Under the pieces are notes generated by a model, which was not told where the DNA came from, did not search any database, and was given only the letters and a program-made list of their open reading frames with translations. From NCBI GenBank assembly GCA_036261925.1, contig DATAJW010000013.1, forward strand, positions 22,544-86,543: a stretch of DNA of 64,000 nt, written 5' to 3'. The position numbers and the translations under genes were made by a program. The stretch comes from Minisyncoccota bacterium (GTDB lineage: Bacteria; Patescibacteriota; Minisyncoccia; Phycocordibacterales; Phycocordibacteraceae). The first letter of the stretch is position 1. Each line of letters begins with the position of its first letter. This document shows, piece after piece, positions 5,704 through 56,434 of the stretch.

Positions 5704-7413
5704 CTAGCGCGCGAGGAACGGCCAGATGTATTCGCTATGGCGGTGCCAGCCGTATACGGTGGCGAACCGGTCCGACGGCGAAGCTATCTGGGGAAGCACG
5801 ATGCCGTCCAAGTCGTTGGGTACAGCATACAGGAAGTCGGGGGCATGCGTAAAGGCTGCCGGGAAATCGCCCGCGATGAGGTTGCTCGCCGCCTGGATAT
5901 CGATGAGCGCCTGGGCGGGGTCGTTCTCGGTGCGCGCACGCGCGAGGAGCTCGTCCACGGTCGGATTCGCGTACCCGGCGATGTTGAGGCCGGGATCCGC
6001 GACCTGCCCCGAGTCCCAGAACGCGAAGAGGTCGCGGTCGCGGCCGATGACCTCGCCGAAGAGCAGCGCCTGGTACGCGCGCGGGCGTATGACGTCGCGC
6101 GTCAGGCTGCCGGAGTCGTAGAGCTCGACCGTGACGGGGATGCCGAGCGCCTCCCAGTCCTCCTTCACGAGGCTCGCGATGGTCTTCAGCTCGGGCACGC
6201 TCGAGGTCTTGAGCGTGATGCCGGGAAGCACGCGGCCAGCCTTTTCCCAGCCGACGCCTTCCGCGAACTTCCAGCCGGCGTCCGCGAGCGCCGCGCGCGC
6301 TTGCGTCATGCGCCCGCTCGGGTCGGGCGGAGTAGGGGACTCGATGCCGATGCCGGGCGGCACCGGCCCGAGGCTCGGCGTGCCGTAGCCACCGAGCACC
6401 TCGTTCACGATGCGCGTGCGGTCTATCGCGAGCGAGAGCGCCTCGCGTACGCCGTCGTCCCCGAAGTCCGTGTACTCGGCCGGGTTATAGAAGACGCCGA
6501 ACATGCGGGCGTAGGGCGCGCGGAGCGCGCCCGCGCGCTTGAAGCCGTACGCGCTCTCGACCGCGCCCCGGCGCAATGCCGCGGCGAGGTCGTCCGCGTT
6601 CGAGTAGAATCGGAGCGTGATGCGATCGAGGAACGGCCGGCCGGCCGTGAACCCCTCGAACGCCTCGAGACGGTATTCCTTTATGACGCCGTCGCGATCG
6701 CGGACGACGCGGGTGACCGCGAACGGGCCGGCGCCCACCGGACGCTCCATAAGCGGCGAGAAGGGGAACTGGTCGTTGCTCACGTCGCGCCAATGCCGTG
6801 CAGGCAGGATGCCGAGCGTCGTATCCTCGAGGAATGGCGCGTACGGCTGCGGCAGGATGAAGCGTACGGTACGCGCATCCACGACCTCCGCGCGGATGTT
6901 CGCCCAGTTCGCGTACTCGGGCGACTTCAAGTCCGGGTCCTGCGCCTTCTCGACGGTGAACACGACGTCCTCGCTCGTCACCGACGAGCCGTCGGAGAAC
7001 GTGGCGTCCGCACGGATGACGAAGGTGTAGGTACGGCCGTCCTCGGAGACGGCATAGCTCTCGGCGAGCCGGGGCTCGAGCAGGCCGTCCGCCCCGATGC
7101 CCATGAGCCCCGCGTACGTCAGCGCGGTGAGGTCCCGGTCGGCATCGGTGAGCGCGAGCAACGGATTCACGAAGCGCGGGTTCCCGACGACGCCTTCGGT
7201 GAGGCTGCCGCCTTCGGCGGGCACGCGGACGAGGAAGGATTTCTGGAGCGCGCGCAGCCCCACGAGGCAGGTAGCGACGAGCGCAATGCCGAGCACGGCG
7301 GCGATGAGCTTGTCGCCGGGCGCGAGCGTGCCTATGAACGCGAAGGCGCCGCGCATGCCGCGGCGTTCAGAGGTGCTCTCGAGTGAGGTAGGGAAGCGGT
7401 CGAATCGCTTCAT
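5704..7413 (-). CDS. ABC transporter substrate-binding protein, family 5 (peptide/nickel type)
   Basis: N-terminal TM/signal, SBP_bac_5-like length and motifs, 569 aa. Confidence 0.6.
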   Translation of the reverse strand: MKRFDRFPTSLESTSERRGMRGAFAFIGTLAPGDKLIAAVLGIALVATCLVGLRALQKSFLVRVPAEGGSLTEGVVGNPRFVNPLLALTDADRDLTALTYAGLMGIGADGLLEPRLAESYAVSEDGRTYTFVIRADATFSDGSSVTSEDVVFTVEKAQDPDLKSPEYANWANIRAEVVDARTVRFILPQPYAPFLEDTTLGILPARHWRDVSNDQFPFSPLMERPVGAGPFAVTRVVRDRDGVIKEYRLEAFEGFTAGRPFLDRITLRFYSNADDLAAALRRGAVESAYGFKRAGALRAPYARMFGVFYNPAEYTDFGDDGVREALSLAIDRTRIVNEVLGGYGTPSLGPVPPGIGIESPTPPDPSGRMTQARAALADAGWKFAEGVGWEKAGRVLPGITLKTSSVPELKTIASLVKEDWEALGIPVTVELYDSGSLTRDVIRPRAYQALLFGEVIGRDRDLFAFWDSGQVADPGLNIAGYANPTVDELLARARTENDPAQALIDIQAASNLIAGDFPAAFTHAPDFLYAVPNDLDGIVLPQIASPSDRFATVYGWHRHSEYIWPFLAR

Positions 7414-7437
7414 AGGGAAGGGTTGCTAGAGCGTGCC

Positions 7438-7791: not shown

Positions 7792-7820
7792 TTGACGCCG
7801 TAGAGCCATCTTCATATACT
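7792..7820 (+). promoter_or_regulatory. sigma70-type promoter for groES (TTGACG-17-TATACT)
   Basis: -35 at 7792-7797, -10 at 7815-7820. Confidence 0.55.
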
Positions 7821-7830
7821 GTGGATAACT

Positions 7831-7864
7831 TTAGAGCGTCTTGAGGAAGCTCTAGGCGCTCTAA
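7831..7864 (+). promoter_or_regulatory. CIRCE-like inverted repeat (variant HrcA operator) upstream of groES
   Basis: TTAGAGCGTC-N14-GGCGCTCTAA inverted repeat immediately downstream of the -10. Confidence 0.45.
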
Positions 7865-7923
7865 AAGTGAAAACGGGCAATTTCTTTACTAAGCGCTAAT
7901 CGCAGCTGCGAACTTTCTTTCGT

Positions 7924-8232
7924 ATGGCAAAGACCGAAAAACTCTCTATCGCTCCGCTCGCTGACCGCGTCGTCATCGAGCCTTCCCCTAAGGAAACCGT
8001 GTCCGCATCCGGCATCATAATCCCGGACTCGGCCAGCCGAGAAAAGCCGGAGCAGGGAACCGTAGTCGCAGTCGGCCCCGGCCGCTATGACGACGGCGCC
8101 TTGGTCCCGATGACGCTCAAGTCCGGCGACACCGTCCTCTTCTCCAAGTACGGCTACGACGAGGTGAAGGTCGACGGCACCGACTACCTCATCCTCCCCG
8201 AGTCGAGCGTATTAGCAGTCATTAGCCACTAG
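7924..8232 (+). CDS. groES: Co-chaperonin GroES
   Basis: 102 aa, classic GroES sequence. Confidence 0.95.
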   Translation: MAKTEKLSIAPLADRVVIEPSPKETVSASGIIIPDSASREKPEQGTVVAVGPGRYDDGALVPMTLKSGDTVLFSKYGYDEVKVDGTDYLILPESSVLAVISH

Positions 8233-8300
8233 GCACTGGGCAGTTAGTAGGATTCGAACTTCCCTATTCTTCCCTAACGCCTGATTCCCTAACAAACTAA

Positions 8301-9947
<1,647 letters not shown>

Positions 9948-10013
9948 GAAGTAAGCAGTAGGTAGTAGGCAGGTTGAAGGGAATTGACTTCCCTGCCTGG
10001 CTATAAAAGATTC

Positions 10014-10045
10014 GAGGCGCGGTCCAGGGACCGCGCCTCTTTCAA
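10014..10045. terminator. intrinsic terminator hairpin after groEL (GAGGCGCGGTCCAGGGACCGCGCCTC + TTT)
   Basis: GC-rich stem followed by a T run. Confidence 0.7.
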
Positions 10046-10210
10046 TCCTCGTGCCCTCGGAATGAATCGATGAGCGTCGCGATGACCGGAACGATGTACA
10101 GGCCGGCGATCGCGGCAAGGCACGCGTAGGCCGCTACATGCGACTCCGTGAGGATGGCGACCGCGAGCACGATGAGCAGCGTCACGGGAAGTTCGAGCTC
10201 GTTTCGCATA
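10043..10210 (-). CDS. small hydrophobic protein (55 aa), strong SD
   Basis: GGAGAAAGGAG upstream of ATG at 10210; single TM; not in the ORF track (<60 aa). Confidence 0.35.
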
Positions 10211-10313
10211 AGATGCTCCTTTCTCCTTCCGGCACGCTACTACGCGGCTGGCGAAAGGGCAACGCGATGCCGTCACGATGAGTTCGCCGCAGGCTGTGCC
10301 TGCGGCGGGGATC

Positions 10314-10460
10314 TCAATCGAGGCGGTCGATCTCGTCCGCGCGGATGCTCCGGCGGCAGATGATCACGAAGATGGCGATGAAGACAAGTGCCGCCACCCA
10401 GCTCAAGGGTCCGAACAGGTGGTCGAGAAAGTACGACCAGTACTCCTGCAGCGCATAGAT
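10314..10460 (-). CDS. small membrane protein (49 aa) from internal Met, strong SD
   Basis: AAGGAGAA 7 nt upstream of MIYALQEYW...; one TM helix. Confidence 0.35.
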   Translation of the reverse strand: MYALQEYWSYFLDHLFGPLSWVAALVFIAIFVIICRRSIRADEIDRLD

Positions 10461-10587
10461 CATTGCCCGTTCTCCTTCCTTAGGTAGAGGAGTCCCAGCC
10501 CGGGATTCCGTCTGAATCCTAGTGCCGCGCGAAGGTTCTAGCAATACATCCTGATTTCGCTATACTCATATATATAACTACCTGCCT

Positions 10588-11148
10588 ATGACTATCCTCT
10601 ACATCGTGCTCGGCATTCTCGTGCTCGTGCTGCTCTGGGCCATCGTCGCCTACAACGGCTTCGTCTCGCTCCGCAATCGCGCCAAGGAGGCGTGGTCAGA
10701 TATCGAGGTGCAGATGAAGCGCCGTTACGATCTCATCCCGAACCTCGTGGAGACGGTGAAGGGCTACGCCGCGCATGAGCGCGCGACATTCGATAGCGTC
10801 ACTGCGGCGCGCGCCAACGCGATGAACGCGCAGACCGTCGCCGAGCACGCGGAGGCGGAGAACATGCTCTCGGGCGCGCTCAAGTCGCTCTTCGCGGTCT
10901 CCGAAGCGTATCCGGACCTCAAGGCGAATACGAATTTCCTCGAGCTCCAGCGCGAGATAAGCGATACCGAGAACAAGGTGATGGCCTCTCGCCGCTTCTA
11001 CAACCAGAACGTCCTGCAGCTCAACACGGCGGTCGAGCAGTTCCCGGGCAACGTGATCGCCGGACCGTTCGGCTTCGGCCAGATGGAGCTCTTCGAGCTC
11101 GCGGAAGGCGAGGAGGCAGCACGCCAGCCGGTGAAAGTTAGTTTTTAG
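10588..11148 (+). CDS. lemA: LemA family protein
   Basis: N-terminal TM plus conserved LemA core (RYDLIPNLVETVKGYA...FPGN). Confidence 0.85.
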   Translation: MTILYIVLGILVLVLLWAIVAYNGFVSLRNRAKEAWSDIEVQMKRRYDLIPNLVETVKGYAAHERATFDSVTAARANAMNAQTVAEHAEAENMLSGALKSLFAVSEAYPDLKANTNFLELQREISDTENKVMASRRFYNQNVLQLNTAVEQFPGNVIAGPFGFGQMELFELAEGEEAARQPVKVSF

Positions 11149-11527
11149 CCACTAGACGTTAGGGTATTAGGGAATGCAGACGTATCGGGACCTGATCGTT
11201 TGGCAACGAAGCATCGAACTCGTTACTGCCATCTATCAGCTCACGAACGCATACCCGAAATCCGAGCTCTTCGGCCTCACGAGTCAGATGCGGCGTGCAG
11301 CAGTATCCATACCCTCGAATATTGCCGAAGGATACGCGCGTAAATCCAGGAAAGAATACATTCAATTCCTGCGCATAGCAGAACTCGAAACGCAACTAAC
11401 AATCACCAGGAACCTTGCACTCGTCACGGAGGAGAAGCTCAAGGTATCCGAAGCGCTTCTGAACGAAACCATGCGTTTATTGAATAAGTTTATCTCTTCC
11501 CTAACGTCTAAACCCTAGTGGCTATAC
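11146..11527. mobile_element. Inverted-repeat-flanked about 380-bp insertion carrying a four-helix-bundle (23S rRNA IVS) protein gene
   Basis: left TAGCCACTAGACGTTAGGGTATTAGGGAA (11146-11175) and right TTCCCTAACGTCTAAACCCTAGTGGCTA (11498-11525) are imperfect inverted repeats; internal GC lower than the flanks; splits the usually adjacent lemA-htpX pair. Confidence 0.55.
11174..11518 (+). CDS. Four-helix-bundle protein (23S rRNA intervening-sequence protein family, TIGR02436-like)
   Basis: DLIVWQRSIELVTAIYQLTNAYPKSELFGLTSQMRRAAVSIPSNIAEGYARKS matches the conserved IVS-protein motif. Confidence 0.8.
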   Translation: MQTYRDLIVWQRSIELVTAIYQLTNAYPKSELFGLTSQMRRAAVSIPSNIAEGYARKSRKEYIQFLRIAELETQLTITRNLALVTEEKLKVSEALLNETMRLLNKFISSLTSKP

Positions 11528-11537
11528 CCTAATTCAT

Positions 11538-12431
11538 ATGGCAACGCTATACCAAGAACGCTCCGCCAACACCTGGAAGACCTGGAGCCTCATGGTCGGG
11601 TTCTTCCTGCTGGTCATCCTCGTCGGGTGGGGCGTCTCGTACTACTACGGCTCCCCCGTTATCCTCTATGGCGCGGTGGCGTTCGCGCTCGTCGGGAACG
11701 TGGGGAGCTACTGGTTCAGCGATAAGCTGGTGCTCTCGATGACGCACGCGAAGCCCGCGACGCGCGAGGAGCACTTCGATTTCTATACGGTGACCGAGAA
11801 CCTCGCCATCACCGCAGGCCTCCCGATGCCGAAGCTCTACGTGATAGAGGACCCGGCGCCCAACGCATTCGCGACGGGACGCGATGAGAAGCATGCAGTC
11901 GTCGCCGCGACGACCGGGCTCCTGTCGATGATGACCCGCACGGAGCTCGAAGGCGTCATCGCGCACGAGCTCTCGCACGTGAAGAACAAGGACATGCTCG
12001 TGATGACGGTCGCGGTCGTGCTCGCTGGGTTCCTGGCCATCATCGCTGACATCTTCCTGCGCATGAGCATGTTCGGCGGTGGCGACCGCGACAGCAAGGG
12101 GAACGCGCTCTTCATGGTTCTTGCCGTGGTCGGCATCGTTCTTGCGCCGATAGCAGCGCAGCTCATCCAGCTCGCTATCTCCCGCCGCCGCGAGTACCTC
12201 GCGGACGCGTCGGGCGCGCTCCTCACGCGTTACCCGGAGGGCCTCGCGTCCGCGCTCCAGAAGATTGGAAGCTACGGGGGAGCCATGAAGACCGCGAACC
12301 ACGCGACCGCGCACCTCTTCATCGGCAACCCGTTCGGCGCGCGCGCCGGCAACCTCATGAACAAGCTGTTCGCGACCCATCCGCCGGTGGAGGACCGCAT
12401 CAAGCAGCTGCTCCAGCCTGACGGACGGTAG
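11538..12431 (+). CDS. htpX: Zn metalloprotease HtpX (M48 family)
   Basis: HELSHV zinc motif, 4 TM, 297 aa. Confidence 0.85.
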   Translation: MATLYQERSANTWKTWSLMVGFFLLVILVGWGVSYYYGSPVILYGAVAFALVGNVGSYWFSDKLVLSMTHAKPATREEHFDFYTVTENLAITAGLPMPKLYVIEDPAPNAFATGRDEKHAVVAATTGLLSMMTRTELEGVIAHELSHVKNKDMLVMTVAVVLAGFLAIIADIFLRMSMFGGGDRDSKGNALFMVLAVVGIVLAPIAAQLIQLAISRRREYLADASGALLTRYPEGLASALQKIGSYGGAMKTANHATAHLFIGNPFGARAGNLMNKLFATHPPVEDRIKQLLQPDGR

Positions 12432-12460
12432 AGGGAATCCGTGCTATAAAAGTGCCATAC

Positions 12461-12547
12461 GGAGGCGTCGGATAGCGGTTTATTCCACCACCTTGGAAAG
12501 GTGGCAGGCTCGAAAGGGTCTCGAGAGTTCGAATCTCTCCGCCTCCG
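12461..12547 (+). tRNA. tRNA-Ser (anticodon GGA), long variable arm
   Basis: cloverleaf folded by hand: acceptor GGAGGCG/CGCCTCC, anticodon loop TTGGAAA, T-loop TTCGAAT. Confidence 0.8.
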
Positions 12548-12557
12548 CCGAATTGCG

Positions 12558-13418
12558 TTAGCGCGCAGGAACATCGAAATACCCCACGAGTTCACTCTCG
12601 ATGTGGTAGTGGTGCAGCTGCTTGTTGAACCGGTCCTCGATAGGTATCTGCGTCGGGTGGAACCCGGGCTTGAAGTAGAAGAGCCAGTACTTGAGGACGA
12701 GATAGTAGACTCCCCGCTTGCCGAGGAGATAGGGCATGCCGTTCCGCCAGACGCGCCACGAGAAGAGCAGCCGCTTCGCGGCAAGGAAGTCGATGATGCA
12801 GCGCGTATGCGCGATGAGGAAGGCGACGCTCACGAACGCGCCGATGAGGACGCGCATGACGTAGCCGCCGCCCTGCGCGCGGTACAGGTCTATCGCGGTC
12901 GAGCGGTGCTCCATCTCCTCGATGCAGTGCCAGCTCCAGACGCGGTCCATGCGCTCGTCCGTGTCCTCGCCCTCGAGCACGCCGATATCGATGACCTGCT
13001 TCGAGTACGTGGCGGTGAAGTGCTCGATGATCATGCAGGTCACGAGCCGCATCTTGAGGGTGAATATGCGTTCGAAGAACCGCAGCAGCACCTCGGTCTC
13101 CTTCACGTGCTTGGTCGCGGGGAAGCCTTGCGCGTCGAGGTAGCGGTTGTAGGCGTCGTGCATGAGGGCGTGCGCGGTCTCCTCGTGGATGAGTATCGCC
13201 GCCTGCTCCTTGAGCGCGGGATCGCTCACCCGCTCCCGCGCTTCCTCGACGGCACGGACGATGAACCGCTCGCCCTCCGGGACGGTCGCGGAGCTCGTGT
13301 TGAACGCGAAGGTGAGGAGTGCGTTATCCTTGAACCACCATTCCCGTATCGGCACTCCGTCGCGCACGAGCTTCTCTGCCGCTTCCCGTTCCCGCTCATT
13401 GATGATCGGCTCTTCCAT
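12558..13418 (-). CDS. predicted metal-dependent hydrolase (PF10118-like), hypothetical
   Basis: HCIEEMEH and HEETAH histidine-rich motifs; 286 aa. Confidence 0.4.
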   Translation of the reverse strand: MEEPIINEREREAAEKLVRDGVPIREWWFKDNALLTFAFNTSSATVPEGERFIVRAVEEARERVSDPALKEQAAILIHEETAHALMHDAYNRYLDAQGFPATKHVKETEVLLRFFERIFTLKMRLVTCMIIEHFTATYSKQVIDIGVLEGEDTDERMDRVWSWHCIEEMEHRSTAIDLYRAQGGGYVMRVLIGAFVSVAFLIAHTRCIIDFLAAKRLLFSWRVWRNGMPYLLGKRGVYYLVLKYWLFYFKPGFHPTQIPIEDRFNKQLHHYHIESELVGYFDVPAR

Positions 13419-28076: not shown

Positions 28077-28258
28077 CGCTTGGGTAAGAAGCTTGCTACG
28101 CAACTTCTTTCCGGGCGCTCGCTCGGCGAGCAAGAATATACCTTCGGGCGCATTCTTGTTGCCTCGCTTGGGTAAGAAGCTTGCTACGCAACTTCTTTCC
28201 CTACGCTCGTTCGACAAATGAGAATATGCCCTTCCGGGCGCATTCTCATCGTCTCACT
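28077..28258 (+). repeat. Two tandem about 90-nt repeats, each beginning with the first 9-10 nt of tRNA-Phe (CGCTTGGGTA) and containing 2-3 hairpins
   Basis: unit 1 at 28077-28164, unit 2 at 28165-28258; shared CGCTTGGGTAAGAAGCTTGCTACGCAACTTCTTTCC. Confidence 0.7.
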
Positions 28259-28259
28259 C

Positions 28260-28332
28260 GCTTGGGTAGCTCAGTTGGTAGAGCACTCCCCTGAAGAGGG
28301 AGGGGTCACCGGTTCGACCCCGGTCCCAAGCA
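28260..28332 (+). tRNA. tRNA-Phe (anticodon GAA)
   Basis: acceptor GCTTGGG/CCCAAGC, anticodon loop CTGAAGA, T-loop TTCGACC; 73 nt. Confidence 0.85.
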
Positions 28333-28354
28333 CTAAAGGGTTTATAGTAGAGGC

Positions 28355-29434: not shown

Positions 29435-29531
29435 TGCGTTAGCCACTCGCCATTAGTACTTAGGGAAGAAGGCCCTGGAACTTCGTTCCAGGGCCTATCC
29501 TACTAACTGCCTAACCCCTAGTGGCTAAAAA

Positions 29532-30020
29532 CTAGCTCGCTTTGATCTTCAGCTTCGTCTGTCGCGTCTTATCGAGCTTCGGCAGGACGATGTTGAGCAG
29601 GCCGTCCTTGGCGGCAGCGGATGCGAGGTCGACGTCCACCTCCTGCGGCAGGAGGATGGTGCGCGAGAAGGTTCCCCAGAAGAGCTCGCGGGTGAAGTAA
29701 TCGGAGTCGGCGAGCTGCTCGCGCTCGTCGCGCGAGCCGTCGATGACGACCATGTCGCGGCTGATGGAGACATTGAGGTCGTCGGGGCGGACGCCGGCAA
29801 CGAAGGTGCGGATGACGATCTCGGTCGCGGTCTGGTAGACGTCGACGGGGAGCTGGCCCTCGCTCGGCTCGTCCTCGTGCAGCGTCGCGAGCGGAACGTT
29901 CTGCGCCAATGAATCCCGGGCACGCACGGGCTCGCGGCGGGGAAGCTCGTCCTCGTAGTCGTAGTCGTCGGCAAGCGGCACGGAACCCGCGAGGCGATCG
30001 AGGAGGGAGCGTTTTTTCAT
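29532..30020 (-). CDS. Hsp20/alpha-crystallin family small heat-shock protein
   Basis: alpha-crystallin domain (PVDVYQTATEIVIRTFVAGVRPDDLNVSISRDMVVIDGSR...GLLNIVLPK). Confidence 0.8.
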   Translation of the reverse strand: MKKRSLLDRLAGSVPLADDYDYEDELPRREPVRARDSLAQNVPLATLHEDEPSEGQLPVDVYQTATEIVIRTFVAGVRPDDLNVSISRDMVVIDGSRDEREQLADSDYFTRELFWGTFSRTILLPQEVDVDLASAAAKDGLLNIVLPKLDKTRQTKLKIKAS

Positions 30021-40248: not shown

Positions 40249-40354
40249 AGTAGTAAGCAGTATGCAGTAGACAGTAGGCAGGAACAAGTGGGACAGGAAA
40301 ATGGCGCAGCTTCGCTGCGCCATTTCTACATGCTACCTACCGCTTACTGCCTAC

Positions 40355-41617
40355 TTATTTCTTGTGACGACGGAGGAACGAAGGAATCGCCCCCCACGCC
40401 TCCTCCTCTTCAGGAGCGGGCGGCGTGAGCGGCTTGGCTTCGTCGCGAGCGGACGGCTTGGCGGTCACGACCGGCTCCTCCTTGCGGGGAAGCTCGGCCT
40501 CCTCCTCGATGTTCTCGAGAACCGCCTCGGGCAGCTGTTCCTCGCGCGACGACGGCTTCATGATGGCGTTGAATATCTTGCCGCGGGTCTCTTCCTGCGT
40601 CTCGGCAGGCATGGCGAAGAGCGAACGCTCGGCCGTCGGGGTGGTGTGCTCGGTCTCGAGCTCGGGGAAGCCGGTCGCGATGACGATGATGCGGATCTGG
40701 CCCTTCTTGAGCTTCTCGTCGCGCATGATACCGAAGATGACCTTCGCGCTCTTGTCGACGGAGTCGGAGACGACCTTCGCGGCCTCCTGGACCTCGAGGA
40801 TGCCGAGATCCTCGGAACCCGCGACGACGAAGAGCACGCCCTTCGCGCCCGTGATGGAGACGTCGAGGAGCGGGGAATTGACGGCCATGGCGGCGGCGTC
40901 CTGCGCGCGGCGGTCGCCGTCGGCGATGCCGATGCCCATGAGGGCGGGGCCTGCGCCCTCCATGATGGCCTTGATATCGTTGAAGTCGGTATTGATCTCG
41001 CCGGGCGTCGTGATGATATCGGAAACGCCCTCGACGGCCTGGCGGAGTATCTCGTCGGCCATGGCGAACGCGCTCTTCGCGGTCGTCTGCGCCTCGACGA
41101 TGGAGAGGAGCTTATCGTTCGGGATGACGATGAAGGCGTCGACTTCCTTCTTGAGCTCGGCGAGGCCCTGCTCGGCGATGTCCTTGCGCTGCATGCCCTC
41201 GAACGCGAACGGCTTGGTCACGACCGCGACGGTGAGCGCGCCGATCTCCTTCGCGATCTTCGCGACGATCGCGCTCGCACCCGTGCCGGTGCCGCCACCC
41301 ATGCCGCAGGTGATGAACACCATGTCCGATCCCTGGAGCGCCTCGAGTATCTCCTGGCGCGTCTCTTCCGCTGCGCGGCGGCCGAGCTCGGGGTTCATGC
41401 CCGCGCCGAGGCCCTTGGTGAGGTTCTTGCCGATGTGGATCTTCTTCTTCGCGAGCGAGCGGTGGAGGTCCTGCGCGTCGGTGTTGATGGCCACGAACTC
41501 CACGCCCTTCACCTTGGAGTTGATCATGTGGTTCACGGCGTTGTTGCCGGAGCCGCCGCACCCGACTACCCGTATGCGGGCAAAGGTCTCGATCTCGGAT
41601 TCTACGCGCTTTGACAT
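40355..41617 (-). CDS. ftsZ: Cell division GTPase FtsZ
   Basis: GGGTGTG tubulin signature, 420 aa. Confidence 0.97.
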   Translation of the reverse strand: MSKRVESEIETFARIRVVGCGGSGNNAVNHMINSKVKGVEFVAINTDAQDLHRSLAKKKIHIGKNLTKGLGAGMNPELGRRAAEETRQEILEALQGSDMVFITCGMGGGTGTGASAIVAKIAKEIGALTVAVVTKPFAFEGMQRKDIAEQGLAELKKEVDAFIVIPNDKLLSIVEAQTTAKSAFAMADEILRQAVEGVSDIITTPGEINTDFNDIKAIMEGAGPALMGIGIADGDRRAQDAAAMAVNSPLLDVSITGAKGVLFVVAGSEDLGILEVQEAAKVVSDSVDKSAKVIFGIMRDEKLKKGQIRIIVIATGFPELETEHTTPTAERSLFAMPAETQEETRGKIFNAIMKPSSREEQLPEAVLENIEEEAELPRKEEPVVTAKPSARDEAKPLTPPAPEEEEAWGAIPSFLRRHKK

Positions 41618-48807: not shown

Positions 48808-49401
48808 GGATATGGGCGGGCGCGCGGATTTGCGGCAAGTACTGGGGAGAGGAAGTTAGTTACTAGCCATTAGGGTTTTAGTAGGAAGGATTCCTGACTA
48901 ACTGCCTAACGACTAGTGGCTAACGACTGGCACCCCAGGGATAGCTTGCTCGCGGCTACTAGACGCGCCTGCGATGAAGGGTTTATACCACTATATAGGT
49001 AAAAGAAAAAGCCCCCGACCTGCGTCGGGGCTTTGCGGCAGCGTAGGTCTCCGTAAAAGGAAAGAGCCCGGGGTTAGCGGGCTCTTGGAGTATCTTCCGT
49101 CTCCGGAAGCTGTCGATGGTGCGACCTGCGGGCGCAGGAACCGGGATAGTCCCGGCAGCGCTCCCCTGCGGCTTCCTTCTGGAGAAGCTCATCCAGGGTC
49201 GCTTTCGCGAGCAGGTCGGCTTCCGCGCGATTGCGCGGCCGCGGATGGATCCGGTGCATAGCAGCTCCGTGTGAAGTGAAAGAACTGGGATTCAGGCGAG
49301 ATAGGCGGGGATGACAACTTTCCCGGAAGCATCCCCGCCTCCTCGCGCATGGCTCGCGGCCTCGTGGGACCGACTGCCGCTCGCCGCGCAAGCTCGGCCG
49401 C

Positions 49402-55849: not shown

Positions 55850-56434
55850 ATGACCCGACTCCATTCGTTCCGCGCGCTTCTCGTCCTCGGCATGCTCGCG
55901 TTCTCCTTCGCGGCGCCTATGCCCGTGGCGTATGCCGCCGACCAATGCAACCCATCGAGCCCGAGCTCATGTCCGAGCGGGCAGCAGTGCAAGAAAGTGA
56001 ACGATGAAGACGCGACATGCGTCGCTATCGAATGCACGCCTGCCTGCAAATCCACGGAAGTCTGCTTCCTCGGCAATACCTGCATTGCGAAGTCGAGCAC
56101 TACCAATCCCGGCGGGACCGAGGGAACTACTAATCCTGGCGGAACCCAGGGAACCGCAAATTCTGGCGCAGGCAGACTCCAGAACCCGCTCAATAATATA
56201 AATAGCATAGACGATCTGCTCGGCGCGGTTCTCGGCGCGGTCGTGCGCATCGGCTCCATCATCCTCGTGCTCGCGCTCGTCTATATCGGCTTCCTCTTCG
56301 TCGTCGCCCAAGGGAACGAGGAAAAGCTCAAGAGCGCTCGGACCGCGCTTCTTTGGACGGTGATTGGCGGTCTCATCCTGCTTGGCGCCACGGCGATAAA
56401 GGAGGTCATAACCGCGACCGTGGACGCGCTATGA
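55850..56434 (+). CDS. Pilin-like two-TM protein paralog 1 (TrbC/VirB2-like core) with N-terminal Cys-rich secreted domain and TNPGGT repeats
   Basis: signal peptide; 10 Cys in about 50 aa; C-terminal core homologous to the four downstream ORFs. Confidence 0.6.
   Translation: MTRLHSFRALLVLGMLAFSFAAPMPVAYAADQCNPSSPSSCPSGQQCKKVNDEDATCVAIECTPACKSTEVCFLGNTCIAKSSTTNPGGTEGTTNPGGTQGTANSGAGRLQNPLNNINSIDDLLGAVLGAVVRIGSIILVLALVYIGFLFVVAQGNEEKLKSARTALLWTVIGGLILLGATAIKEVITATVDAL

Follow-up and report, generated by a model that had tools for sequence, protein, structure and literature searches.

The "23S rRNA IVS protein" or "S23p" family (PF05635/TIGR02436) is a very common family of four-helix-bundle (4HB) proteins for which we know of three solved structures and of no function outside diversity-generating retroelements (DGRs). 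PF05635 genes are found in rRNA intervening sequences (IVSs), in rRNA insertions of candidate phyla radiation (CPR) bacteria, and inside cas operons. In the 23S IVS of Coxiella burnetii, the S23p open reading frame (ORF) is closed by a 28-bp stem of inverted ends, three or four tandem GACAGAT heptamers of variable copy number lie just 5' of the ORF, and RNase III in vitro cuts where the first repeat begins (PMC4990558). Over-represented intergenic heptamer repeats have likewise been reported repeatedly, previously without explanation. The Xanthomonas campestris genome has 186 arrays of the heptamer GGGAATC, about 70 of them described as convergent inverted pairs, for which no explanation was given (Rehm et al. 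2015, PMC4692102), and TAACTGA heptamers occur in Beggiatoaceae, cyanobacteria, and Bacteroidetes (PMC4679880). A search for the term "S23" in the first of these papers and its supplements, and a term search of the second for the 4HB/S23p family, found no mention. We analyzed a 64-kb stretch of DNA (referred to as the window; 63% GC) from a Candidatus Paceibacterota (Patescibacteria) genome, in which a 4HB gene flanked by inverted arrays of 7-nt units lies between lemA and htpX. Together with a comparison of 78 homologous loci, this locus links the IVS protein family to the bacterial heptamer-repeat palindromes: the gene is typically bracketed by genome-specific arrays of 7- to 8-nt units, and palindromes that share the same unit and lack an ORF are scattered in the same genomes as the bracketed genes.

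The components of the locus are as follows.

10588 to 11148, plus strand: lemA, 186 amino acids (PF04011, 201.7 bits).
11138 to 11173, plus strand: left (5') array of five units, TTAGTTT, TTAGCCA, CTAGACG, TTAGGGT, and ATTAGGGA, with the pattern NTAGNNN.
11174 to 11518, plus strand: 4HB gene of the "23S rRNA IVS protein"/"S23p" family, 114 amino acids (PF05635/TIGR02436).
11497 to 11533, plus strand: right (3') array of the units TTCCCTAAC, GTCTAAA, CCCTAGT, GGCTATA, and CCCTAAT, with the pattern NNNCTAN.
11127 to 11542, plus strand: predicted long-range closing stem of 37 pairs, 11127-11173 with 11493-11542.
11538 to 12431, plus strand: htpX, an M48 metalloprotease of 297 amino acids (PF01435 and NCBIfam HtpX models).

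A preliminary description of this DNA had reported an AT-richer segment with a 114-amino-acid TIGR02436-type gene between lemA and htpX, and this was confirmed. The insert has 49% GC against 62% in its surroundings, with values of 0.46 to 0.50 across 11200-11599 and of 0.60 to 0.69 in the flanking DNA, and the protein scores 113 bits against PF05635 (cut-off 33.8) and 108.2 bits against TIGR02436 (cut-off 24). As had also been stated, the 4HB gene is the sole cargo between lemA and htpX; it is the single 4HB gene in the window. The inverted repeats of about 28 bp that had been quoted are present (left, 11146-11174; right, 11497-11524), but they are parts of two five-unit, period-7 arrays that reach beyond them on either side of the gene. 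In the left array, TAG recurs in 7-nt phase at 11139, 11146, 11153, 11160, and 11168, and in the right array CTA starts at 11501, 11508, 11515, 11522, and 11529. In the window, TAG-N4-TAG-N4-TAG was counted 10 times, where 0.07 occurrences were expected. The overlap with the lemA stop codon was correctly noted: the stop (11146-11148) and the last three sense codons, GTT AGT TTT, lie inside the left array, and the right array holds the final codons and stop (11516-11518) of the 4HB gene and ends 4 nt 5' of the htpX ATG. An inverted-repeat search paired 11138-11162 with 11508-11532 (25 nt, 76% complementary), and 11153-11164 and 11499-11510 form a perfect 12/12 inverted pair. The plain inverted-repeat score of the window pair was 10.5; in 317 shifted controls, the 95th percentile was 9.0 and the highest score 15.5. 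The value of the window pair is modest because the arms differ by one whole 7-nt unit.

Folding of 11125-11545 as RNA gave -125 kcal/mol, compared with -104.9 +/- 5.5 kcal/mol for shuffled sequences (z -3.65). The predicted closing stem was present in both the minimum free energy and the centroid structures, with a mean pair probability of 0.90, and is interrupted by a single 7-nt bulge of one unit at 11510-11516; its outer part includes the htpX start codon. We searched the cassette for a sigma-70-like promoter and found none, and the two terminator-like matches both fall inside htpX. An Rfam search of 7800-12700 (E up to 1) returned only tRNA-Ser and no other RNA family. Two other identities for the arrays were considered and rejected. 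A G-quadruplex requires at least four G-runs, and the window arrays (TAGCCAC and TAGGGTT units) have too few, with just two GGG runs in the left array. A CIRCE/HrcA operator was entertained since TTAGCCACTAG resembles TTAGCACTC and two of the elements touch groESL and htpX; it was dropped informally, as the arm spacing and the period of 7 are unlike CIRCE and elements also occur at ftsZ and rpsA.

We propose, holding the chances that this is right or wrong to be about equal, that the locus is a cassette of the IVS type lying outside rRNA and that its arrays fold into a working closing stem in the lemA-htpX message. The cassette would have no promoter of its own and would be transcribed within that message. 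Once transcribed, the 5' array, which is G-rich, would pair with the C-rich 3' array in an imperfect stem of about 37 bp that closes off the ORF. The same stem would cover the lemA stop codon, the ribosome-binding region of the 4HB gene, and the htpX start codon. By analogy with the terminal stem of the Coxiella 23S IVS, it would act as a cis element, a double-stranded site for cutting by RNase III, and the encoded pentamer-type protein might bind it as well; through such cutting or binding, the insert would be uncoupled from the host message and the translation of the flanking genes would be set. Spread of such a cassette would be slow, and palindromes without an ORF would be its decayed or ORF-less family members.

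The ORF-containing 23S IVSs of Coxiella burnetii and Leptospira carry the same protein family inside the element as the window cassette does. A closing stem is formed from inverted ends in both cases (about 28 bp in Coxiella, 37 bp predicted in the window), tandem heptamers precede the ORF in Coxiella as five TAG-phased units do in the window, and neither element appears to have its own promoter; the window cassette, like the rRNA ones, would be read from a host transcript. However, the host of the window cassette is the protein-coding operon lemA-htpX, so that the cassette sits outside rRNA and not in a 23S or 16S rRNA helix, the insertion site that defines an IVS. Both arms of the window cassette are whole repeat arrays, and excision by RNase III, shown for the rRNA cases, is here inferred. 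The cassette is best filed as a variant on the known IVS; the wider link between 4HB genes and heptamer arrays is the interesting part, and it is directly testable.

We compared the flanks of homologous genes. The sample comprised 80 metagenomic loci with 4HB homologues of 46 to 65% identity and host GC contents of 25 to 65%, 78 of which were scored (comparison loci and contigs fetched in this work are designated L001 to L176). For each gene, the 90 nt on its upstream side were scored for complementarity to the 90 nt on its downstream side, and controls had the same geometry shifted by 0.7 to 1.5 kb. The median score was 15.2, compared with 7.0 in the controls, and 69 of the 78 loci exceeded the control 95th percentile of 9.0. 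The arms had periods of 7, 8, or 14, with units such as (AGGGATT)8, AGGTGTCR, AGGCACAA, TAGCGTT, TTTAGGG, and TAGGGTA/TAGCCAA. The best autocorrelation lag was 7, 8, or 14 for 66 of the 78 upstream flanks and for 59 of the 78 downstream flanks, and the match threshold of 0.5 at lag 7 or 8 was reached by 35 upstream and 25 downstream flanks but by only one of 348 control windows. The G-rich arm was 5' in 68 of 78 loci and the C-rich arm 3' in 66 of 78. The unit sequence varied among genomes and agreed between the two arms of one locus. The preliminary description had asked whether other 4HB genes carry the same termini; they carry the same kind of inverted flank, with units that vary among genomes. 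Additional arrays with the same unit were found elsewhere in the same loci in 18 scan windows over 257 kb, compared with none in 862 kb when arms and loci were mismatched. Chance juxtaposition of gene and repeats, which we regard as unlikely, is in effect excluded because the bracket recurs around 88% of the homologous genes, in genomes that are unrelated and whose units are quite different.

The array-gene-inverted-array layout was also observed on annotated Riemerella anatipestifer, Picosynechococcus PCC 7003, and Azospirillum lipoferum plasmids, and on several IMG/VR viral contigs. The Picosynechococcus cassette lies between cas10/cmr2 and cmr3. On plasmids of Nostoc PCC 7120, the design is partly present. 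The gamma (L162) and alpha (L163) plasmids of that strain encode the same 4HB protein, WP_010994075.1, in different neighborhoods beside transposase genes; they have about 0.9 kb in common at 87% identity, with a C-rich CTTCTGC array downstream. Full-text searches of the accessible literature turned up no paper stating that inverted heptamer arrays generally flank PF05635 genes, although one may exist elsewhere. A universal role for the arrays as three-frame stop insulators was rejected, as stops in all frames were present in just 51 of 75 upstream and 42 of 75 downstream arms and many units contain no stop codon.

The only PDB sequence match of the window 4HB protein was XCC0516 of Xanthomonas campestris (2GSC; E 1.2e-19). 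An AlphaFold2 monomer model (pLDDT 89.9) had four main helices, and Foldseek superposed it on 2GSC with a TM score of 0.88 and a root mean square deviation of 1.5 A; the next matches were BT_0352 (2RLD) and then the DGR protein bAvd (4DWL, 8UB7). The family has the conserved motif GxxRxxxSxxxNxxE (PMC3936711). Its R-x3-S-x3-N-x2-E part is present in the window protein as R41, S45, N49, and E52, which are invariant or nearly so among 26 sequences, and in the subfamily of the window protein the first G is Q38. The conserved C-terminal tail of homologues, SSL(V/T)(A/S)KP, is encoded by the units of the right array (for example, SSLVAKP by CTAGTGG/CTAAACC). The window allele carries an in-frame 15-bp deletion (junction at 11377-11381) that removes five residues, AYGSG or equivalently YGSGA, including the near-invariant Gly-Ser in the turn between helices 2 and 3; this G and S are kept at 90% or more in 25 homologues. 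The same organism in another sequencing run (L161, 227-586) retains the 15 bp and is otherwise 100% identical over about 700 nt. The model with the deletion was still a bundle, with a dip in confidence at residues 51 to 70. Family membership of the protein is unaffected by the missing Gly-Ser, and the function of the window allele is in doubt.

Several observations weigh against a stem that works as RNA. The polarity of the arms (G-rich 5', C-rich 3') and the conservation of the unit sequence exceed what pairing needs. Mismatches between the arms included 44 G.U and 53 A.C combinations in the sense transcript (p 0.42), which is no RNA-specific signal, and the majority of arm mismatches were transversions. 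About 12% of the loci had no arrays, as was also the case in Calothrix PCC 7716, and the 4HB gene of an IMG/VR contig (L174) is flanked by CGATTGT arrays in direct and not inverted orientation. At the window itself, the arms are imperfect, at 76% complementarity over their 25 nt, and the allele without the Gly-Ser turn is possibly defective. A search of the 64-kb window for an ERLEFLGD-type RNase III signature found none; we list this on the same side, but it is uninformative. Owing to the lack of a G.U excess, the polarity, and the conservation of units beyond pairing, two rival explanations stay alive, one in which the arrays act as the ends of a DNA-level mobile element and one in which the 4HB protein itself recognizes the units.

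The history of the lemA-htpX junction bears on these explanations and on whether the gene is ancestral there. LemA and HtpX had been described as normally adjacent, which held in part: among 74 relatives with lemA upstream of htpX, the gap was less than 80 bp in 33, whereas the others carried MazG, NUDIX, DUF2207, or unknown genes. Across L001 to L080, the junction was a variable slot in Paceibacterota, with PF05635 genes in three separate lineages. The proposed insertion stood up when spacings were compared, since the nearest relatives have spacers of 33 to 64 bp without the gene. In L175 (HtpX 90% and LemA 93% identical), the spacer is 64 bp and not a hairpin (z -0.9); it is 45 bp in L176 (HtpX 86%) and 33 to 42 bp in L001, L002, and L004 (HtpX 84 to 85%). 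The 4HB gene was absent from the junction in all nearest relatives, namely L175 at 90% and at least eight others at 80 to 86%. As judged from these comparisons, the cassette is an addition in this lineage relative to its nearest relatives. An exact-sequence search with HtpX and LemA retrieved L161 alone, with the same arrangement, and L175, the nearest other genome, is too distant to date the insertion event.

The explanation that the 4HB gene was always present between lemA and htpX and was lost in the sampled relatives draws on L063 and L073, which also have a PF05635 gene directly upstream of htpX, in L073 with the CTAGTGGCTA unit. However, these genes are just 43% and 54% identical to that of the window, each has its own arrays, and the nearest relatives of both L063 and L073 lack the gene, so that they look like independent gains at the same junction. 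Given also the nine or more empty relatives of the window and the difference between 49% and 62% GC, we consider an ancestral arrangement highly improbable.

The array appears to have grown into lemA. Each of the last three lemA sense codons differs from that of L175 by one synonymous C-to-T change, giving TTAGTTTTTAG, in a gene with a synonymous C-to-T rate of about 6% per site and a GC content at third codon positions of 0.86. The array therefore seems to have been extended into the gene without a change in protein, which suggests that conversion or selection extended it into the lemA coding sequence; the three changes create the 17-mer TAGTTTTTAGCCACTAG. Because the array runs into the 3' end of lemA, the boundaries of the cassette are blurred, and no target-site duplication could be recognized at it.

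The preliminary description had called the insert a small, non-autonomous mobile cassette. That it was gained, with inverted flanks common to its homologues, agrees with our results; classical terminal inverted repeats, a target-site duplication, a transposase, and a near-identical copy were not found. Its further claim of direct evidence for selfish or mobilizable spread was too strong, as the data concern gain and architecture, and not a mechanism of movement. A recent horizontal copy was rejected, as no second near-identical cassette was found (the best non-self homologue is 68% identical) and similar cassette pairs are syntenic.

In the DNA-level explanation, the arrays would be subterminal ends for a transposase or recombinase supplied in trans, the palindromes would be derivatives resembling MITEs (miniature inverted-repeat transposable elements), and the 4HB gene would be cargo. 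Inverted, multicopy subterminal motifs with a fixed inside/outside polarity are found in transposons with repeated binding sites, and the empty sites in relatives, the GC deficit of the gene, and the arm mismatches without strand asymmetry fit such an element. At the lemA-htpX junction of L071, an ORF-less heptamer palindrome is an insertion relative to L075 (91% HtpX identity), where the gap is 0. Truncated copies occur in L157 (1637-3420), a Bacteroidota-like arg operon in which the three consecutive spacers before a full cassette each hold a partial copy; these copies retain the array, the leader, and the first codons and have lost the rest of the gene. Two of the three form a tandem duplication of about 180 bp. 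Such internally deleted copies indicate that ORF-less elements can arise from cassettes. With MITEs, the window elements share small size, inverted ends, an intergenic location, several copies per genome, and presence or absence among relatives. They differ in that the ends are short-unit arrays that vary by a one-unit insertion or deletion, with no defined terminal inverted repeat, in that neither a target-site duplication nor, in or next to the cassette, a partner transposase was found, and in that the "cargo" is conserved and co-oriented with host genes.

The behavior of the cassettes over time does not favor an element of this kind. The most similar cassette pairs in the sample were syntenic orthologues and not copies in new contexts, and no transposase was found in or next to the cassettes. 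Orthologous pairs had dN/dS values of 0.06 to 0.10, and their 60-nt flanks were conserved as much as, or more than, 4-fold degenerate sites; between L131 and L151, the downstream flank is 95% identical, compared with 54% at 4-fold sites. These data suggest that the protein and the arrays are maintained, functional sequence and not merely a selfish passenger. On this comparative evidence, the orthologous cassettes of the metagenomic sample behave as long-lived functional residents, not rapidly mobile ones. The cassette gene lay at a median distance of 46 nt from the ORF before it and of 42 nt from the ORF after it, and both neighbors were co-oriented with it in 24 loci and both opposed in 1. 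The GC content of the gene averaged about 8 points less than that of the DNA around it (68 of 71 loci), yet it tracked host GC (r 0.85). Co-orientation, purifying selection, and conserved flanks are not needed by a model in which the gene is cargo. We consider the DNA-level mobile element unlikely.

The repeat of the cassette is not confined to it. Elsewhere in the window, its units also form at least four palindromes that have no ORF:

8222 to 8310, no strand assigned: ORF-less element in the groES-groEL spacer, with a TAGCCAC-type left arm and a TTCCCTA-type right arm; degenerate, fold z -1.0.
29440 to 29534, no strand assigned: ORF-less palindrome with the 3' end of a DUF2914 gene on one side and that of hsp20 on the other, enclosing a GC-rich inner hairpin; -42.4 kcal/mol, z -5.1.
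40249 to 40355, no strand assigned: ORF-less palindrome from ftsZ to a thioredoxin-reductase-like gene (minus strand), with CAGTA-type 7-nt units (period 7 by TRF) and an inner hairpin; z -6.1.
48857 to 48922, no strand assigned: ORF-less palindrome 50 nt upstream of the S1 (rpsA) gene (minus strand); -33 kcal/mol, z -6.9.

With one mismatch or fewer, TAGCCACTAG was found in 7 places in four intergenic regions (positions including 8223, 11146, 11515, 29518, and 48913), against 1.1 expected, and 0 of 100 shuffled sequences reached 7. The 17-mer TAGTTTTTAGCCACTAG is identical at 11139-11155 (plus strand) and 29518-29534 (minus strand), and both copies lie at the stop codon of the upstream gene, lemA and hsp20, respectively. 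Thus, a 10-mer and the 17-mer are common to the cassette and the ORF-less elements. The preliminary description had named as a refutation that the repeats might prove to be generic intergenic repeats with no association with 4HB genes elsewhere; generic they are, but the association was found at 69 of 78 loci.

These ORF-less copies bring in a further explanation, in which the palindromes are intergenic hairpins by which the host regulates highly expressed and stress genes (for example, as processing sites, terminators, or thermometer-like leaders) and the 4HB gene either landed in the loop of one that was already there or lies between two by chance. The four positions in 64 kb (groES-groEL, the 3' end of hsp20, between ftsZ and trxB, and upstream of rpsA) fit host functions, and the groES-groEL palindrome is positionally conserved, with the same unit, in L006 (3244-3352). 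The TTCCCTA motif lies directly 5' of start codons, and the spacer of L175 bears a weak resemblance to the right array, with a score that 7 of 500 shuffles reached. That this spacer is a remnant of a cassette was rejected, as the resemblance is no more than weak and the spacer does not form a hairpin. Against this stand the bracket shared by 88% of homologous genes in unrelated genomes with different units, the lemA-htpX spacers of the nearest relatives, which are not palindromes, and the ORF-less elements of L157, which arose from cassettes by internal deletion. Host hairpins with a gene caught among them are, in our assessment, distinctly improbable.

Of the six array elements in the window, three touch heat-shock genes (8222-8310 at groES-groEL, 11138-11533 at lemA-htpX, and 29440-29534 at the 3' end of hsp20); the chance of this is about 0.02 by a post hoc estimate. 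A role of these elements as temperature-sensitive hairpins is conceivable. TTCCCTA occurs 13 times in the window, against 2.9 expected, often directly 5' of start codons (groEL and a solute-binding protein), at sites that include 8258-8310, 7413-7419 (minus strand), and 11497-11503. In the groES-groEL spacers of L001 to L056, the groEL leaders of many relatives contain the motif ACTTCCCT or AATTCCCT between one and three times and lack a G-rich partner arm. The TTCCCTA-type motif may serve as a leader signal across the clade, unconnected with 4HB genes.

REPtrons offer a precedent for dispersed palindromes that belong to one gene. In these, repetitive extragenic palindromic (REP) elements are dispersed and genome-specific, and the RAYT gene, which encodes a Y1/HUH transposase, is itself flanked by inverted REP copies. 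The window likewise has dispersed, genome-specific extragenic palindromes and one gene flanked by inverted copies. Unlike the RAYT gene, the flanked gene in the window encodes a small, helical, pentamer-type PF05635 protein, and the repeat is a short-period array, whereas REP is a single palindrome of 20 to 40 nt. By extension, the 4HB pentamer would itself recognize the 7- to 8-nt units in RNA or DNA, and the ORF-less palindromes would be its targets for regulation, protection, or propagation. In line with this, the units are genome-specific and common to the cassette and the ORF-less palindromes, and it is the unit sequence, not pairing alone, that is conserved. In DGR ribonucleoproteins, pentameric Avd binds stem-loops of the RNA and holds a duplex in position for the reverse transcriptase (bioRxiv 10.1101/2023.10.23.563531), and Avd has the same fold and belongs to the same superfamily as the window protein. 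A DGR as such was rejected, since there is no reverse transcriptase and no template/variable repeat pair near the window gene, and the DivGenRetAVD model (NF033474) scored 31.4 against a cut-off of 80, with a weak PF22296 match. Unit similarity rose with protein similarity (Spearman 0.31), as recognition by the protein would predict, but this correlation is confounded by host phylogeny, and the C-rich TTCCCT motif occurs in the groEL leaders of relatives without a 4HB gene in the DNA examined. From these sequence patterns, recognition of the units by the protein appears possible but unlikely.

The Xanthomonas repeats resemble those of the window in several respects. They are intergenic, consist of tandem 7-nt units, and form convergent pairs in which the G-rich strand comes first. 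In Xanthomonas campestris, array 15 spans the start of XCC0516, and the inverted pair 16/17 lies in the groES-groEL spacer (PMC4692102 supplement). The window also has an inverted pair in that spacer, and XCC0516 is the closest solved homologue of the window protein; for recognition by the 4HB protein, this overlap is, with the 186 arrays and their inverted pairs, a supporting case. The papers on heptamer repeats (PMC4692102, PMC4679880) treat them as G-quadruplex or translational elements, whereas the window units have too few G-runs. In the broadest reading, PF05635 genes and intergenic heptamer palindromes would be one widespread system, in which an Avd-like pentamer recognizes, maintains, or propagates cognate 7- to 8-nt arrays and the ORF-less palindromes are dispersed targets or derivatives. 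We hold this to be unlikely. It would take in the GGGAATC arrays of Xanthomonas, and the heptamers of cyanobacteria and Beggiatoa may belong to it too. If it is true, the rRNA intervening sequences would be the rRNA-borne subset of a general cassette, which would explain their form. Speculatively, the inward, G-rich 5'-to-3' polarity matches the outcome expected if both 3' ends of a DNA break were extended reiteratively, in the manner of telomeres; the polarity would then suggest, equally speculatively, that the arrays originated from Avd plus a polymerase.

The neighbors of the 4HB gene region are groEL, lemA, htpX, a tRNA gene, and a Metal_hydrol gene:

12461 to 12549, plus strand: tRNA-Ser, 3' of htpX.

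Two further tandem repeats were noted in the window. Directly upstream of tRNA-Phe (28260-28333), the stretch 28077-28246 holds 1.9 copies of an 88-bp unit with 85% identity, and at 56099-56168 a 27-bp tandem repeat with 2.1 to 2.4 copies at 81 to 86% identity lies inside a coding region.

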